Under the pieces are notes generated by a model. That model did no database searches, was not told the DNA's origin, and worked only from the letters and a program-made list of their open reading frames with translations. The translations under genes and the position numbers were made by a program. DNA of 64,000 nucleotides from NCBI GenBank assembly GCA_041639395.1, contig JBEQCG010000005.1, forward strand, positions 4,854 to 68,853, given 5' to 3'. This document shows, piece after piece, positions 19,017 through 38,368 of this stretch. The DNA is from Thiobacillus sp. (lineage in GTDB: Bacteria > Pseudomonadota > Gammaproteobacteria > Burkholderiales > Thiobacillaceae). The stretch's first letter is position 1. Each line of letters opens with the position of its first letter.

Positions 19017-20492
19017 TCAGCCGATGCGCACCGGCACGAACAGGCGCTGGCCGTTGCGCTGCACCAGCAAGGCGACCGATTTGCCGGCCCCGTCGAGGAT
19101 GCGTTTCACCGTTTCGATACTATCGACCGGCTTGCCATTGACCGACACCAGCACGTCGCCCGGCTGTACGCCGGCGCGCGCAGCGGGGCCGCTGGCGTCT
19201 TCCACCACGAGACCGGATTCCACACCGGTGGCGCGCGATTCTTCCGGCGCGAGCGGACGCAGGGCCAGCCCCAGCCGCGCTTTGTCGAGATCGCGTTTGG
19301 CTTGCTGGGCGCGGGGTTCGGCGAATTTGTCGAGGGTGACGGTGAGCGTCATCGGCTTGCCGTTGCGCCAGACGTCGAGCCGGGCCGGCTTGCCGGGCGC
19401 GGCCTGGCCGACCAGCACCGGCAGCTCGCCGGCGTTGGCGACCGGTTGGCCGTTGAAGCTGCGGATCACGTCGCCGGTTTTCACCCCGGCGCGGTCAGCG
19501 GCGCTGCCTTTTTCCACCTGCGCGACCAGCGCACCTTCGGGCTTGGCGAGCTTGAACGAGTCGGCCAGCGCCTGATCCACTTCCTGGATCGCCACGCCGA
19601 GCCGGCCGTGGGTGGCGTGGCCGGTGGCGACGATCTGATCCTTGATGCGCACCGCAAGATCGATGGGAATCGCGAACGACAAGCCCTGGTAGCCGCCCGA
19701 ACGGCTGAAAATCTGCGAGTTGATGCCGATCACTTCGCCGCGCGAATTGATGAGCGGGCCGCCGGAGTTGCCGGGGTTCACCGCCACGTCGGTCTGGATG
19801 AAGGGCACGTAGCCGTCGTCGGGCAGCGAGCGGCCCTTGGCGCTGACCACGCCGGCGGTGACGCTGTTCTCAAATCCAAAGGGCGAGCCGATGGCGAGCA
19901 CCCATTCGCCCACTTTCAGGTCGGCCGGGTTGCCGAGCGGAACAGTGGGCAGATTTTGCGCGGCTATCTTCAGCACCGCCACGTCGGTCTTGTCGTCGCG
20001 GCCGATCACTTTGGCCTGGAATTCGCGGCGGTCGGTGAGTTTCACCGTCACCGTATTCGCGCCGCGCACCACGTGGGCGTTGGTGAGTATGAGGCCGTCC
20101 GGGCTGACGATGAAGCCCGAGCCTTCGCCGCGCGCGGGTTGGCCGCCGCGCGGGCCTTGTGGTATCGGCAGGCCGTGGCGGCGGAAGAATTGCCACACCG
20201 GATCGTTGGCGTCGGGCGCAGCGCGTGCGCTGTCATCCTCGCTGCCGGCGTTGGCCACGGCGATGTTGACGACCGCAGGGCCAAAGCGTTCGACGATGCC
20301 AGTGAAGTCCGGCGCGCCGGCCAGCGGTGCAGCGAGCGGCGCGCTGGCCGCCGGCGCCACCAGCACGGTGGGCGCGGGCGCGCTGGCGCTGGCGTGGCCG
20401 CCCAGCGTCCAGGCGGCAGCGCCGCCGCCGAGCACGCCGGCGGTGAGAAGCGCAAGAATCAGGCGGGTGGGAGACAGGGCAATCGGGGACAT
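19017..20492 (-). CDS. degQ: HtrA/DegQ periplasmic serine protease with two PDZ domains
   Basis: Intact triad LTNAHVV / KTDVAVL / VNPGNSGGP; N-terminal signal or anchor. Confidence 0.92.
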   Translation of the reverse strand: MSPIALSPTRLILALLTAGVLGGGAAAWTLGGHASASAPAPTVLVAPAASAPLAAPLAGAPDFTGIVERFGPAVVNIAVANAGSEDDSARAAPDANDPVWQFFRRHGLPIPQGPRGGQPARGEGSGFIVSPDGLILTNAHVVRGANTVTVKLTDRREFQAKVIGRDDKTDVAVLKIAAQNLPTVPLGNPADLKVGEWVLAIGSPFGFENSVTAGVVSAKGRSLPDDGYVPFIQTDVAVNPGNSGGPLINSRGEVIGINSQIFSRSGGYQGLSFAIPIDLAVRIKDQIVATGHATHGRLGVAIQEVDQALADSFKLAKPEGALVAQVEKGSAADRAGVKTGDVIRSFNGQPVANAGELPVLVGQAAPGKPARLDVWRNGKPMTLTVTLDKFAEPRAQQAKRDLDKARLGLALRPLAPEESRATGVESGLVVEDASGPAARAGVQPGDVLVSVNGKPVDSIETVKRILDGAGKSVALLVQRNGQRLFVPVRIG

Positions 20493-20581
20493 GGGCTCTC
20501 CATCAAAATGCGTTGAACAGGCGCGGCGTGTGCGGTCGCGTGTCGCTCCGACCGTCCGCCACGCGCGCGGGTTCCTGGGGT

Positions 20582-20725
20582 TTACTTGTCGAACGGAATC
20601 TCGCCGTCGCGCCGGTAGCGGGCGCGCGCCGAGGGCCGGTACACCCACGCGATCACCGCAAGGAGCGCGAGCGGCGGGCCGACCATCCAGCCGTAGTCAC
20701 GCAGGAAAGCGAGCAGGGTATTCAT
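20582..20725 (-). CDS. CcoQ/FixQ-like small membrane protein (47 aa; below ORF-track cutoff)
   Basis: Hand translation MNTLLAFLRDYGWMVGPPLALLAVIAWVYRPSARARYRRDGEIPFDK; starts 3 bp after the upstream stop. Confidence 0.7.
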   Translation of the reverse strand: MNTLLAFLRDYGWMVGPPLALLAVIAWVYRPSARARYRRDGEIPFDK

Positions 20726-22990: not shown

Positions 22991-23055
22991 CGGGGGAAAA
23001 CCCCCGGTCACCGGAGTGGGGGCTTTGCGCCAGCCGGGCCGGGGCATTTCCCCCG
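22991..23055. promoter_or_regulatory. Putative enhancer (UAS) array
   Basis: CGGGGGAAAACCCCCG (22991), weak TGGGGGCTTTGCGCCA (23017), CGGGGCATTTCCCCCG (23040). Confidence 0.6.
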
Positions 23056-33117: not shown

Positions 33118-33222
33118 CGGGGCATACGCGCCAATCGAAACGGGGGATATCCCCCGATTGCTGGCGCTTCCCAGAATAATCCAAGCTGAATCAATCGGTT
33201 GCGATCTGGCACACAGCCTGCT
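33118..33222 (+). promoter_or_regulatory. UAS + IHF site + sigma54 promoter of the sqr operon
   Basis: CGGGGGATATCCCCCG (33141-33156); AATCAATCGGTTG exact IHF consensus (33189-33201); TGGCAC-ACAGC-CTGCT (33207-33222). Confidence 0.75.
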
Positions 33223-33266: not shown

Positions 33267-34565
33267 ATGACCCCACAAATTCCCTCGTCCCGTCCGCACG
33301 TTGTCGTGCTGGGCGGCAATTTTGCCGGCTTTGGCGCGGCGCAGAAAATCCGTGAATTCGCCGGCGACGCGGTGCGCATCACCGTGGTGGATCGCAAGTC
33401 GCGCCTGCTCTACGTGCCCAATATTCCGCTCGAAGTGTTCGAGAACCGCAACCCGGCGGCGAGCCTGTTCATGGACATCGTCAAGCCGCTGGCCGACGAC
33501 GGCATCGACTTTGTGCGCGCCGAGGTGAACGCCATCGACCCGGTGGCCTCGACGGTGACGTGGACGCCCGACGAGCGTCCCGGCGCGGCGAGCGAAACCC
33601 ACGGCTACGACTATCTGGTGGTGGCGCTGGGCAACCGGCTGGCGTTCGACCGCATCGAGGGCTACGCCGAACACGGCCACAGCCTCACCGACACGGTGCA
33701 GGGCGAAAAGCTGCGCCGCTACCTGCACGAAGACTATCGCGGCGGGCCGATTGCCATCGGCTCGGCGCGCTTTCACCAGGGCGACGGCGCACGCGGGCTG
33801 GAACCCTACCCGCACGGTTCGATTCCCTACGCGCTGGCCGCCTGCGAAGGCCCGCCGGTGGAGGTGATGCTGTCGATGGCCGACTGGCTGAAGCGGCACA
33901 AACAGGGCGGCCCGGACAAGGTCACCGTGTTCACGCCGGGCGAATTGATCGCCGAGGACGCGGGGGTGCAGGTGGTCGATCAGCTGCTCGGTATCGCCGG
34001 CAAGATGGGCTTCCACTATCTCAACAAGGTCGGTGACATCGAACGCCTCACTGCGCACGGCGTCGAGTTTGCCGATGGCCGCAGCGTCGAGGCCGAACTC
34101 AAGATCGTGTTCCCCGACTGGCGCGCGCACGAATTCCTGCGCGGCCTGCCGATTGCCGACAGCGAAGGTTTCATCGTCACCGATCTCACCATGCGCAACC
34201 CGGCGTTCCCGAACGTGTTTGCGGTGGGCGACTGCGCAGCGGTGACGGTGCCCAAGCTCGGTGCCATCGGTCACCAGCAGGCCGAGATCGTCGGCCGCCG
34301 GCTCGCGCACGAACTCGGCCGGCTGGACGACCCCGGCGAGCCGCTCGCACCGGTGGTGTACTGCATCGGCGACATGGGTAGCGGCCAGGCGTTTTACATC
34401 CGCTCCAACAGCTGGTTCGGCGGCGACACCCAGGTGCTGAAAATGGGCCGCGTGCCGCATCTCTTGAAGATGCACTACAAGACGATGTTCTACGAACGCC
34501 ACGGCAAGGTGCCGGCCTGGGGGCTGGATGCCGCCGAGCTGCTGGCGGAAAAAGTGTTTGCCTGA
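33267..34565 (+). CDS. sqr: Sulfide:quinone oxidoreductase (type V/SqrE-like)
   Basis: VVVLGGNFAG FAD fold, ACEGP and YCIGDMG cysteine pair, AVGD..VPKLG. Confidence 0.78.
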   Translation: MTPQIPSSRPHVVVLGGNFAGFGAAQKIREFAGDAVRITVVDRKSRLLYVPNIPLEVFENRNPAASLFMDIVKPLADDGIDFVRAEVNAIDPVASTVTWTPDERPGAASETHGYDYLVVALGNRLAFDRIEGYAEHGHSLTDTVQGEKLRRYLHEDYRGGPIAIGSARFHQGDGARGLEPYPHGSIPYALAACEGPPVEVMLSMADWLKRHKQGGPDKVTVFTPGELIAEDAGVQVVDQLLGIAGKMGFHYLNKVGDIERLTAHGVEFADGRSVEAELKIVFPDWRAHEFLRGLPIADSEGFIVTDLTMRNPAFPNVFAVGDCAAVTVPKLGAIGHQQAEIVGRRLAHELGRLDDPGEPLAPVVYCIGDMGSGQAFYIRSNSWFGGDTQVLKMGRVPHLLKMHYKTMFYERHGKVPAWGLDAAELLAEKVFA

Positions 34566-34710
34566 CGCAGCCCGTGCTGCGCGTTGTTACCCAACGGGTA
34601 GGGCGACTGGATGCGCCGGATCATGGAACGCCCTACCCGTTTCCCTCACCCCGGCCCTCTCCCGCAAGCGGGAGAGGGGGACGCAGCCAACGCTGCGCGT
34701 TGTTACCCAA
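34564..34710. repeat. Composite palindromic element: 31-bp direct repeats flanking two hairpins
   Basis: 34564-34594 vs 34680-34710 (28/31); GTAGGGCG/CGCCCTAC IR; CCCTCTCCCGC-AA-GCGGGAGAGGG hairpin. Confidence 0.65.
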
Positions 34711-34727: not shown

Positions 34728-34943
34728 ATGGCCAATGCCCTGCAACGGGAAGCGATCCCGACCCTCAACGCCGGAGGTGATTTCGCCTCGGTCGTGCTGC
34801 GCGTGCTGCTCGGCGCGGCGATGCTGTTGTGGCTCGCCGCCGGCATGTTCGTGTGGACGGCGCTCGCGCTGTTCACCCTGCTGCTGGCGACGCTGCGCCT
34901 GCCCTTCGTGCTGCTGGGGCGCCTGATGGCGCGTCGGCCATGA
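34728..34943 (+). CDS. Small membrane protein (71 aa)
   Basis: AAGGAG RBS, long hydrophobic stretch, ATGA overlap with emrA. Confidence 0.7.
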   Translation: MANALQREAIPTLNAGGDFASVVLRVLLGAAMLLWLAAGMFVWTALALFTLLLATLRLPFVLLGRLMARRP

Positions 34944-35932
34944 CGCGGGGGCGCATCGTGGCGATCGCGCTGGTGTGCTCTGCGGTGGCGCTGGCGGGTG
35001 GCGCGGCCTGGTGGCGCGTGGCCAGCCGCGAGGTGTCGACCAGCGACGCCTACGTCGGCGCGCAGGTGGTGCAGATCGCGCCGCAGATCGGCGGGCGGGT
35101 GAATTCGGTCGCGGTGTGGGAAGGCCAGTCGGTGAAGCGCGGCGACGTGCTGTTCCGCATCGACCCGGCCCCCTACGAACTGGCGCTCGACGCCGCGCGC
35201 GCGCGGCTTACCCAGGCGCGCGAAGGCGCGCGCGCCGGGCAGGCGGCGGTGGGCGCGGCGCGCGCCGAAGTGCAGGCACAGGCGCAAACCGCGCACAACG
35301 CCGAATCGCTCGCGGCGCGCGACACCGCGCTGGTGGCACGCGGCTTTCTCTCACCGCAGGCCGGCGAAACGGTCGACGCCCAGGCCGCCGCGGCGCGCGC
35401 GGCCACCCGCGCCGCGCGCGAACGCGAAGCGCAGGCGGTGGCCGCCGCCGGCGCGGCGGGGCGCGACAACGCCGGCATTCGCGCGGCCGAGGCGGCGCTC
35501 GCGCAGGCGCAGCTCGATCTGGCGCACACCGTGGTGCGCGCGCCGGCCGACGGGCGCATCAGCCAGTTGACGTTGCGGCCCGGAGCCATGGTCGAGGCCA
35601 GCACGCCGCTGTTCGCGCTGGTCGATTCGAGCCGCTACTGGGTCGATGCCAACTTCAAGGAAACCGATCTGGCGCAGATCCGCAGCGGGCAGCGCGCCAG
35701 GGTCACGCTCGACATGCAGCCCGGCCAGGTGTACCGGGGGTCGGTGATCGCCATCGGTGCCGGGGCGGGCAGCGCGTTTTCGCTGCTGCCGCCAGAAAAC
35801 GCCAGCGGCAACTGGGTGAAGGTGACGCAGCGGGTGCCGGTGCGCATCCTGCTCGACGGCGTCGAAGCGGGTGCACTGCCGGCGGTGGGTGCCAGCGCAA
35901 CCGCCACGGTGATGCTTGGCCATGACGGCTGA
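34940..35932 (+). CDS. emrA: EmrA/HlyD-family membrane fusion protein
   Basis: STSDAYV, APQIGGRV, VDANFKET, PPENASGNWVKVTQRVPVRI. Confidence 0.9.
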   Translation: MTRGRIVAIALVCSAVALAGGAAWWRVASREVSTSDAYVGAQVVQIAPQIGGRVNSVAVWEGQSVKRGDVLFRIDPAPYELALDAARARLTQAREGARAGQAAVGAARAEVQAQAQTAHNAESLAARDTALVARGFLSPQAGETVDAQAAAARAATRAAREREAQAVAAAGAAGRDNAGIRAAEAALAQAQLDLAHTVVRAPADGRISQLTLRPGAMVEASTPLFALVDSSRYWVDANFKETDLAQIRSGQRARVTLDMQPGQVYRGSVIAIGAGAGSAFSLLPPENASGNWVKVTQRVPVRILLDGVEAGALPAVGASATATVMLGHDG

Positions 35933-37457
35933 ATCCGGCCGCACCGAACCCAACCGCGCGCTCATCATCCTCGCGGTGATGAGCGCCGCCGTGCTGGTGG
36001 TGCTCGACATGACCATCGTCAACGTGGCGATGCCGCACATGGCGGGCGCGCTGGGGGCCAGTCAGGAAGAAATCAGCTGGGTGCTCACCAGCTATCTGGT
36101 GGCGTCCGCCGTGTTCATGCCGCTCACCGGGTTTCTGGTCGACCGTTACGGCCAGCGCCGCGTGCTGCTGGTGTCGATAGCCGGCTTCGTGACCGCCTCG
36201 GCGGCCTGCGGGCTGGCGCAGAATCTTTCGACCATGCTGATTTTTCGTGGCTTGCAAGGCCTATTCGGGGCCTCGCTGGTGCCGCTGTCGCAGGCCATCC
36301 TCACCGCCGTCACGCCGCCCGAACAGCGTGGCCGCGCGATGGCGCTGTGGGGCATGGGCGTGATGCTGGGGCCGGTGCTGGGCCCCACGCTCGGCGGCTG
36401 GCTCACCGAAACTTTCGACTGGCGCTGGATTTTCTACATCAACCTGCCGGTGGGGCTGATGGCGCTGGCGATCGGTGCGCGCGCGGTGCCCGAATCGGCG
36501 CGCATCGCGCGCGTGCTCGACTGGCGCGGTCTGGCGCTGGCGTCGGTGGCGATTGCCGCGCTGCAATTCGCGCTCGACCGGGGCAACACCGACGGCTGGC
36601 TGGGGTCGCCCGTCATCGTCGGCTGTTTCGTGCTGTCAGCCACGGCTTTCGTCGCCTTTCTGGCGTATGCGCTGACGACCAAACGGCATCCGGTGTTCGA
36701 CCTCCACGTCTTCGCCGACCGCAATTTCGCCACCGCGTCGGCGATCATCGGCGTGCTGGGCCTCGGCATGTTCGGCGCGCTGGCGGTGCAGCCGGTGATG
36801 CTCGAAACCCTGCTCGGTTACCCCGCGCTTACCGCCGGCGAAGTGATGGCCCCGCGCGGGCTGGCGAGCCTGTTGGCGATGGTCGTCGCCGGTCGCCTGA
36901 TTGGCCGCGTCGATACGCGCTGGATCGTCGGCAGCGGCATGCTGCTTGCGGCCGCCGGCAGCTACGCCATGGCCGGACTCACGCTCGATCTGTCGCCCTG
37001 GCAGGCGGTGTGGCCGGGCCTGCTGCAAGGCGCGGGCATGGGGCTGATGATGGTGCCGCTGTCGGCGCTTGCGCTGTCCACGCTCAAGCCTGCGATGCAG
37101 GCCGAGGCGGCGGGCATTTTCAGCTTGGTGCGCACGCTTGGTTCGTCGGTGGGCATCGCCGTCGTCGCCAGCGTAGTGAGCCGGCAGACGCAGACCATGT
37201 GGCAGCAGCTCGGCGCGCACGTCGATCCCTACAACCCGGCGCTTGGCACCTGGCTGGAACGCCTGCACGCCACCCCGCACGACCCGCAGGCGATGGCGGT
37301 CGTCACCGCCGAACTCGCGCGCCAGGCGTCGATGCAGGGCGTGCTCGACGCCTACGCGCTGATCGCCTGGAGTTTCCTCGCCATGCTGCCGCTGCTGGGC
37401 TTCCTGCACGGCGGCAAGGTGGCGCGTCCCCAGGCTGCGCCGGCGGAGGCGGGGTGA
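35922..37457 (+). CDS. emrB: DHA2 MFS transporter, EmrB-like
   Basis: LDMTIVNVAMP, WVLTSYLV, GPVLGPTLGGWLT, WRWIFYINLPVG. Confidence 0.9.
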   Translation: MTAESGRTEPNRALIILAVMSAAVLVVLDMTIVNVAMPHMAGALGASQEEISWVLTSYLVASAVFMPLTGFLVDRYGQRRVLLVSIAGFVTASAACGLAQNLSTMLIFRGLQGLFGASLVPLSQAILTAVTPPEQRGRAMALWGMGVMLGPVLGPTLGGWLTETFDWRWIFYINLPVGLMALAIGARAVPESARIARVLDWRGLALASVAIAALQFALDRGNTDGWLGSPVIVGCFVLSATAFVAFLAYALTTKRHPVFDLHVFADRNFATASAIIGVLGLGMFGALAVQPVMLETLLGYPALTAGEVMAPRGLASLLAMVVAGRLIGRVDTRWIVGSGMLLAAAGSYAMAGLTLDLSPWQAVWPGLLQGAGMGLMMVPLSALALSTLKPAMQAEAAGIFSLVRTLGSSVGIAVVASVVSRQTQTMWQQLGAHVDPYNPALGTWLERLHATPHDPQAMAVVTAELARQASMQGVLDAYALIAWSFLAMLPLLGFLHGGKVARPQAAPAEAG

Positions 37458-38368
37458 AGCCGCCCCTTTGGCAGGCCGTCGCAGCCTTGCTTGTCATTGC
37501 CGTTGCGCTGCTGGGGTGGCATCGCAGCAGCGACACGGTGCCGGCCGGCGCGCCGGCCGTGCCGTCGGCGCAGGCGGTTCAGCGCGCTGCGGCGGCACAG
37601 GTACGCGTCGAAGCGCCGGGCGGCGTCGGCAGCGGGCTGCGTCTCGACGACAGCGGCGACGTGCTGGCCGCAGCCGGCGTGCTTGGCGGCGCGGGTACGG
37701 TGAACGTGCGCGACGCGCTCGGCGTGCAGCATCGCGCGCAGGTGCGCGGCGTCGATCGGGTGACCGGGCTGGCGCTGCTGGAAACCGCCGCGCTTGCGGG
37801 CGGGCCGCTGGACTTCGACGCGGTGGAAACGCTCCGCGCCGGGCAGGCGGTCTACGCGCTCGGGGCGGACACGACCTCGCGCGGGCAGGTGACGCAGGCC
37901 GCCAGTACGCTGGCTGGCGCGGCCGACGTGGCGGTGATCGTCACCGACGCCCGCGCCTGTCCGCAAGACGCCGGCGGCGCACTGGCCGACGCCGCCGGGC
38001 GCATCGTCGGCGTGCTGCTGCCGCTGCCGCGCTGCGGCCACGCCATTGCGCTGCCGCTCGCCGCCGCGCACCGGCTGGCGGCGCAACTCAAAACCGGCGG
38101 CCACGCCCGGCGCGGCTGGATCGGCGTCACCGTGGCAGACACCGCCGGCGGCGTGCGCATCGAGTCGGTTGTGCCGGACAGCCCTGCCGCGCAAGCCGGC
38201 CTGCGCGTCGGCGATACGGTGATCGCGTGCGACGGGGCGCTGCCGCGTGCCGCAGGATTTGCCCCGCGCGTGGCGGCGATGCCGCCCGGCCACGATGCCG
38301 CACTGACCATCCGGCGCGACGGCCATGTCCTGGGTGTGACCGTCATCGTGGCGGAGGCGCCGGCGTAG
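37454..38368 (+). CDS. HtrA/DegS-like trypsin-fold + PDZ protein, catalytic triad absent
   Basis: GTG start overlapping emrB stop; TM anchor, GSG motif, RRGWIGV PDZ; triad positions read LAAAGVL, VTGLALL, QDAGG. Confidence 0.75.
   Translation: MKPPLWQAVAALLVIAVALLGWHRSSDTVPAGAPAVPSAQAVQRAAAAQVRVEAPGGVGSGLRLDDSGDVLAAAGVLGGAGTVNVRDALGVQHRAQVRGVDRVTGLALLETAALAGGPLDFDAVETLRAGQAVYALGADTTSRGQVTQAASTLAGAADVAVIVTDARACPQDAGGALADAAGRIVGVLLPLPRCGHAIALPLAAAHRLAAQLKTGGHARRGWIGVTVADTAGGVRIESVVPDSPAAQAGLRVGDTVIACDGALPRAAGFAPRVAAMPPGHDAALTIRRDGHVLGVTVIVAEAPA

Follow-up and report, generated by a model that had tools for sequence, protein, structure and literature searches.

Why should a bacterium keep the gene of an HtrA-type protease from which all three catalytic residues have gone? 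The question is raised by a locus in a 64,000-nucleotide stretch of Thiobacillus sp. DNA (contig JBEQCG010000005.1, positions 4,854 to 68,853; hereafter the window), where a gene at positions 37454..38368 of the + strand encodes a 304-amino-acid (aa) protein that Pfam, alignments, an AlphaFold2 (AF2) model, and Foldseek identify as having the HtrA fold without the catalytic triad, that is, as a pseudoprotease. The gene lies immediately behind emrB, which encodes an efflux permease. A sequence-only reading of the window had favored a pseudoenzyme over random decay, and this view has held up: all relatives of the protein lack the triad, purifying selection is evident in every lineage, and both the position of the gene and its coupling to emrB are conserved. 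We conclude that the triad-less HtrA is a pseudoenzyme maintained by selection and not a gene in decay, a conclusion that is well supported by the evidence described below.

The reference point for the loss of the triad is provided by the window itself, which encodes an active two-PDZ protease of the DegQ/Do type in a separate transcription unit (positions 19017..20648 of the − strand; triad intact; 487 bits against TIGR02037, for which the cut-off is 416). Relative to this DegQ, His is replaced by Gly75 (TNAHV to AAAGV), Asp by Gly105 (KTDVA to VTGLA), and Ser by Ala173 (GNSGG to QDAGG). These strings are identical to those given by the sequence-only reading, and three alignments agree on the positions, namely, those with the window DegQ, with solved chains of DegP-like proteins, MucD, and DegS, and among a set of 32 sequences. 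None of the relatives (10 proteins and 1 more read from a genome locus) has the triad either; in them the His is replaced by Gly or Trp, the Asp by Gly, and the Ser by Ala. Because the protease domain has no His or Ser that is constant across the family alignment, there is no substitute catalytic triad. In addition, the protein is seen in the 32-sequence alignment to have a shortened L2 loop and LD region, the elements through which allosteric activation is signaled in active HtrAs. Against the curated NCBIfam models, the protein scored 90.8 bits with TIGR02037 (HtrA/Do; cut-off, 416.2) and 62.7 bits with TIGR02038 (DegS; cut-off, 422.95). Since it fails both the catalytic feature and these thresholds, it is a non-peptidase homologue of the HtrA family.

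Although the catalytic residues are gone, the architecture is that of an HtrA protein. Pfam recognized a Trypsin_2 domain at residues 59-187 (41 bits, against a cut-off of 27.6) and a PDZ_2 domain at residues 222-298 (42 bits, above the gathering score), the latter also being matched by PDZ_6 and PDZ. The AF2 model, built from the 32-sequence alignment, has a predicted local distance difference test (pLDDT) score of 88.5 and a predicted template modeling (pTM) score of 0.79 and consists of two beta-barrels and a PDZ domain; when it was submitted to Foldseek, structures of MucD, DegS, and DegQ were returned at template modeling (TM) scores of ~0.7, with E values of 1e-20 to 1e-22. In the model, an N-terminal helix at residues 5-24 is the putative membrane anchor and is followed by a disordered tether (residues 23-32). 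We place the membrane helix at residues 4-24 (positions 37463..37525, + strand), on the basis of the AF2 model and of the relatives, which have a basic N terminus and then a hydrophobic stretch. The helix probably stays uncleaved and serves as a signal anchor, like that of DegS, and the protein would then be anchored in the inner membrane with its protease and PDZ domains in the periplasm. The degenerate protease domain occupies residues 40-205 (positions 37571..38068, + strand) and the PDZ domain occupies residues 206-300 (positions 38069..38353, + strand). In the latter, the carboxylate-binding loop R220-G-W-I-G224 is intact and the stretch PPGHDAALT is invariant; indeed, the RGWIG loop, like most of the PDZ domain, does not vary across the family. 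Thus, the DegS-like layout that had been read from the sequence (a transmembrane anchor, a trypsin fold, and a single PDZ domain) agrees with the Pfam, AF2, and Foldseek results alike.

What has become of the former active site? The most highly conserved motif of the protease domain is C169-P-x-D172-A173-G-G-x-L-A-D, in the former oxyanion/L1 region, with Cys169 and Asp172 both invariant, and a second invariant cysteine of the family is Cys194. In chymotrypsin numbering, we take Cys169 to be equivalent to residue 191 (four before residue 195), Asp172 to residue 194, and Cys194 to Cys220; the spacing from the conserved glycine in the strand before is 8 residues here, against 9 in chymotrypsin. 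The motif C..D[SA]GG was found in 0 of the 148 nearest representatives. This pattern of residues suggests that a Cys169-Cys194 bridge of the 191-220 type, typical of S1A proteases, may have arisen on an S1C scaffold, where it would staple a remodeled S1 cleft.

The family that shares these features is very small. A search of 5.8 billion proteins found 10 relatives, at 50 to 91% identity, to which the sequence read from a genome locus is added, and a profile search of 1.84 billion cluster representatives found two family clusters (50% identity), with scores of 545 and 455 bits, the next match being at 235 bits. As only two clusters were found by this exhaustive search, the family is a tiny, lineage-specific clade. 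Its members come from Hydrogenophilales-like metagenome-assembled genomes (MAGs) or metagenomes, the named records being Hydrogenophilales MAGs in which the gene is annotated "hypothetical protein."

Within this clade the gene is under clear constraint. In a codon alignment of seven of the genes, at a synonymous divergence (dS) near 1, every indel was a multiple of three and there were no stop codons. Over the 21 pairs, the ratio of non-synonymous to synonymous divergence (dN/dS) was 0.28 to 0.49 by the NG86 method and 0.12 to 0.22 by YN00 where the latter converged; because YN00 did not converge for many distant pairs, we used NG86 and count tests instead. Between the window gene and its 91% identical relative there were 26 non-synonymous and 37 synonymous differences, a significant depletion of the former (p = 1e-6), and the corresponding depletion in two other recent pairs was stronger still (p = 3e-26 and 2e-24). 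Divided by part, the median dN/dS was lowest, and the constraint greatest, in the PDZ domain (0.33), followed by the protease domain (0.43) and the membrane anchor (0.59). Thus, we found neither an orthologue that retains the triad nor neutral evolution of the window copy.

The place of the gene is as constant as its motifs. In the window, the start codon is a GTG that overlaps the emrB stop codon in the form GTGA, with the sequence GGAGG 4 nucleotides upstream, so that the intact, emrB-coupled 304-aa frame proposed earlier is confirmed. Seven contexts could be read (the window and loci L013, L014, L024, L025, L026, and L027), and in all seven the pseudoprotease gene begins with a codon (GTG, ATG, or TTG) that shares bases with the stop codon of the emrB orthologue before it. 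The gene order of the window is repeated in L013, L014, L024, and L025; the short contigs L026 and L027 show only emrB, directly upstream. Orthologues of this emrB, at 77 to 97% identity, are confined to a small clade, and among 41 genomes of the genus the emrB orthologue and the triad-less HtrA occur in the same two, the other emrB genes of the genus being paralogues at 42 to 44% identity. In none of the contexts examined was the triad-less HtrA seen apart from this emrB lineage. At a further locus (L032, 2653-2759), an emrB gene at 77% identity is followed by an open reading frame (ORF) overlapping it in the form ATGA (MNIPDKIPPPQSACAARKTYSVPLPRFLVAAWRGV...) and cut by the contig end; this ORF may encode a more divergent member of the family.

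The emrB gene is itself part of an operon that runs from a sigma54 promoter through genes for a flavoprotein resembling sulfide:quinone oxidoreductase (SQR), a 71-aa protein, EmrA, and EmrB to the triad-less HtrA, which comes last. The promoter, TGGCACacagcCTGC, is of the sigma54 type (TGGCAC-N5-CTGC; positions 33207..33221, + strand) and lies ~45 bp upstream of the SQR-like gene, and TGGCAC-N5-CTGC precedes the SQR-like gene in L013, L014, and L024 as well. Farther upstream, at positions 33141..33156 (+ strand), is the 16-bp palindrome CGGGGGATATCCCCCG, which is a probable activator site for a sigma54 regulator; the window contains three matches to it, against 0.02 expected, the others being at 22991 and 23040. 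We found no promoter resembling the sigma70 type within the operon.

The first gene (positions 33267..34565, + strand; Pyr_redox_2) encodes a flavoprotein that has no N-terminal signal peptide and whose best solved relative is the archaeal SQR of Acidianus ambivalens (3h8i; 177 bits), bacterial SQRs scoring at most 58 bits. The 71-aa product of the second gene (positions 34728..34943, + strand) is a two-helix membrane protein that is conserved in L024 and L025 and matches no Pfam or NCBIfam family, and the end of its gene overlaps the emrA start in the form ATGA. The 160-bp gap between these two genes is filled by two perfect hairpins with 13- and 11-nucleotide arms (34593-34678); because the gap is only 11 bp in L024 and L025, the hairpins look like an inserted element of the repetitive extragenic palindrome (REP) type. 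The third gene (positions 34940..35932, + strand) encodes a periplasmic adaptor of the EmrA/MdtN type that matches HlyD families (TIGR00998, 243 bits, below the cut-off of 390.8; MdtN, 220 bits), and emrB (positions 35916..37457, + strand) encodes a DHA2 permease of the major facilitator superfamily (MFS; TIGR00711, 429.5 bits, cut-off of 230). A gap of 3 bp separates the end of the triad-less HtrA gene from a convergent ZIP/ZupT gene, beyond which lie a GNAT gene and then an OxyR-like gene of the LysR type.

What, then, might a protease that cannot cut do behind a pump? Of the readings considered, we favor, at even odds, one in which the triad-less HtrA works without catalysis as a binding subunit or an accessory, either of the pump or of the stress response that the operon serves. 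In such a scheme, one sigma54-dependent mRNA would give rise to the SQR-like flavoprotein, the 71-aa protein, the EmrA/EmrB pump, and the pseudoprotease, and translational coupling to emrB would apparently cause the last to be made in fixed proportion with EmrB. Its N-terminal helix would anchor it in the inner membrane, with the flexible tether holding the protease and PDZ domains in the periplasm, where a peptide or protein ligand would be held, not cut, by the intact PDZ groove and by the remodeled former active-site cleft, the latter probably stapled by the Cys169-Cys194 bridge. We infer both the binding of a ligand and a physical association with the pump. A narrower form of the idea is that the protein is a membrane-tethered fourth subunit of the pump, in which the cleft, restapled by the 191-220 disulfide, and the PDZ domain act together in the periplasm to capture or gate either the cargo of the pump or its outer-membrane partner, within a sigma54-dependent response to sulfide or envelope stress; this we offer tentatively, as a possibility that is more likely wrong than right.

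Several observations weigh against a role in the pump. The gene evolves faster than its neighbors: between the window and L013, amino acid identity is 55% for the triad-less HtrA, the fastest gene, against 67% for the GNAT protein, 72% for EmrA, 83% for EmrB, 84% for the ZIP transporter, and 90% for the OxyR-like regulator, the dN/dS for the same comparison being 0.37, near those of emrA (0.34) and the GNAT gene (0.32). As the family consists of 11 sequences, its conservation statistics rest on few lineages. The operon proteins offer no conserved periplasmic C-terminal tail to the PDZ domain. The tails of EmrA vary, and a PDZ clamp on the C-terminal tail of a partner, which we also considered, found no support in view of the variable periplasmic C termini of the EmrA orthologues; the C termini of EmrB and the 71-aa protein are most likely cytoplasmic by the positive-inside rule. 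Finally, the nearest pump operon outside the clade (L031, 1134-5147; emrB 62% identical) comprises genes for a small protein, EmrA, and EmrB but no triad-less HtrA, so the pump does not need one, and the pseudoprotease therefore joined it late and within a particular lineage. The L031 operon also lacks the SQR-like gene and lies beside genes for YfdX and COX2/cytochrome oxidase, neighbors that it has in common with the block of the window; its 82-aa leader protein gave a weak match to Cpta_toxin (PF07254; 22.7 bits, below the cut-off).

That a related pump operon works without the pseudoprotease also speaks for a free-standing envelope-stress factor, which would be a tethered holdase, or a PDZ decoy or sensor for C termini that misfolded outer-membrane proteins expose, and would merely be co-regulated with the pump through the sigma54 regulon. 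The DegS-like layout with an intact PDZ carboxylate loop is in keeping with this idea, as are the enhancer palindrome of the operon, which is common to the YfdX-type stress operons of the block, and the chaperone action of protease-dead DegP (S210A). However, the strict overlap with emrB in all seven contexts points to stoichiometric co-production with EmrB, and the gene keeps to this one emrB lineage; we therefore consider a free-standing factor possible but doubtful. A different partner had been suggested by the sequence-only reading, which paired the pseudoprotease with the active DegQ of the same block. Part of this stands, in that a DegQ orthologue (83% identity) lies 11 to 17 kb from the triad-less gene in all three of the three genomes carrying the latter, from which it follows that the two belong to one accessory block. 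The pairing itself is supported only loosely, because genome G007 has a DegQ orthologue (77%) without either the triad-less HtrA or an orthologous emrB, whereas the triad-less HtrA lies directly behind emrB in every readable context: the likelier and tighter partner is the pump and not DegQ. A modulator of DegQ, or a subunit of mixed oligomers with it, would have a precedent in the activation of MamE by MamO, but the two genes are on opposite strands in different transcription units, and the proteins are only ~27% identical, so that a shared trimer interface is not evident. We think such a role quite improbable.

Still less weight is given to a sulfur or redox role, in which the cysteines, instead of forming a structural disulfide, would work as a thiol pair that might, for instance, carry or sense sulfane sulfur, the SQR-like enzyme being the source of this sulfur and the pump its route of export. 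The invariance of Cys169 and Cys194, their restriction to this family, and the resemblance of the first operon gene to the Acidianus SQR are what recommend it. The spacing of the cysteines, however, would fit the structural 191-220 disulfide of chymotrypsin-type proteases, the protein has no rhodanese, DsrE, TusA, or thioredoxin signature, and nothing ties the pump to sulfur compounds, all of which makes this role very improbable. There is, last, the case for a decaying paralogue whose frame is open merely because stop codons are rare at ~70% G+C. The frame is in fact open for 673 codons, counting an upstream extension, and an antisense ORF of 324 codons runs along the same DNA; the openness of the frame alone is therefore uninformative. 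Codon-position G+C does not discriminate between the two strands here, and we chose the + frame because homology and fold favor it; the antisense ORF and the 673-aa upstream extension are by-products of the high G+C content. But the fold is recognized at high confidence, orthologues at a dS near 1 have kept the frame, the length, and many invariant motifs, and dN/dS is significantly below 1 in every lineage, which already refutes decay and leaves it with almost no credibility.

From what kind of HtrA might the pseudoprotease have come? In our tree, the clade sits on a long stem (1.4 substitutions per site) beside triad-less HtrA homologues of an actinobacteria-like type, with 95 support in the Shimodaira-Hasegawa-like approximate likelihood ratio test (SH-aLRT). 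Long-branch attraction is likely here, and approximately unbiased (AU) tests did not reject a sister relation either to the active one-PDZ HtrA of the genus (p = 0.135) or to the local DegP/DegQ group (p = 0.155). The active one-PDZ HtrA, of ~400 aa, is present in four genomes of the genus (L003, 1147-2349; also L004 and L005); it is 39 to 42% identical to the triad-less protein, with which it has the motif PPGHDAAL...RNGH.LG in common. No such match was found in the genome of the window, whose best other HtrAs are 31 to 34% identical to the triad-less one. The actinobacteria-like homologues (P0019, P0026, and P0027, at L028 6001-7014, L029 4949-6166, and L030 1614-2831) are a separate family, encoded among genes for MoaE, MreB, a HEAT protein, sortase, and a Lon_C-PDZ protein, unlike the efflux context described here; as that gene context is unrelated, we ruled them out as a guide to function. 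Several long HtrA-like proteins with multiple PDZ domains (P0034, P0035, P0040, P0076, P0081, P0087, and P0103) read NPGSFGG at the nucleophile motif, with Phe in place of Ser, and metagenomes seem commonly to contain degenerate homologues of HtrA. A PDZ loop of the G021 orthologue contains in-frame microsatellite expansions (L014, 8655-8720; ADAADAADA and then VGGVGGVGGVGG), which are shorter in P0017 and absent from P0018.

The immediate reach of these findings is limited, as the family is very narrow and known from uncultured genomes only. Nevertheless, bacterial pseudoenzymes derived from HtrA have been documented mainly through MamO, and a clean natural example is now added. If the protein binds the pump, tripartite MFS pumps would be shown to be capable of taking on periplasmic accessories specific to one lineage, and there would be a handle on the export substrate of this SQR-linked pump; if it is in truth a fourth subunit, drug or metabolite efflux pumps would have their first accessory of protease origin. 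The apparent re-creation of an S1A-type 191-220 disulfide on an S1C scaffold is also of some small interest for protein evolution.

How does the system compare with those already characterized? With its adaptor and DHA2 permease, the operon resembles EmrAB-TolC, MdtNOP, and AaeXAB of Escherichia coli; in aaeXAB, too, a small membrane protein precedes the adaptor and permease. We know of no characterized tripartite MFS system that has an HtrA-like or PDZ protein as its fourth gene, and the literature that we searched held nothing relevant on an efflux-linked HtrA or PDZ accessory. With DegS and AlgW the protein shares the N-terminal helix, the tether, the protease domain, and a single PDZ domain with an RG-aromatic-IG carboxylate loop. 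DegS itself, however, cleaves RseA as an active protease under allosteric control, whereas here the triad is gone and both L2 and LD are short; furthermore, there is no sigma-E or anti-sigma gene nearby, the neighbors being emrB and the ZIP transporter gene. DegP S210A shows that an HtrA fold lacking its nucleophile can still bind unfolded clients, but it is a laboratory mutant that forms cages and has two PDZ domains, whereas the protein described here is natural and membrane tethered, has one PDZ domain, and has lost three residues.

The closest parallel is found in magnetotactic bacteria, in which MamO and inactive copies of MamE are pseudoproteases of the HtrA family and the roles of MamO are non-catalytic (PMC4794232). 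As in that case, an HtrA fold with a degenerate triad has been kept by selection beside membrane transport functions, with an active HtrA relative nearby. In MamO, however, His and Asp are retained and Thr occupies the position of the nucleophile; that protein also has a fused TauE transporter domain and a surface di-His motif that binds metal, and its gene belongs to a magnetosome island. In the protein of the window, none of the three residues is left, no His of the protease domain is invariant, and the PDZ domain is retained; there is neither a TauE fusion nor a di-His site, and the gene follows that of an MFS pump. The protein gave no match to the MamO model (NF040961) at E values up to 0.1. 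HtrA pseudoproteases are thus already known, and the present one is a new example of a known theme and not a new kind of system; what is new is that all of its triad is gone, that it has a cysteine pair specific to its family, and that it is invariably coupled to a tripartite MFS pump within a sigma54 operon headed by an SQR-like gene.

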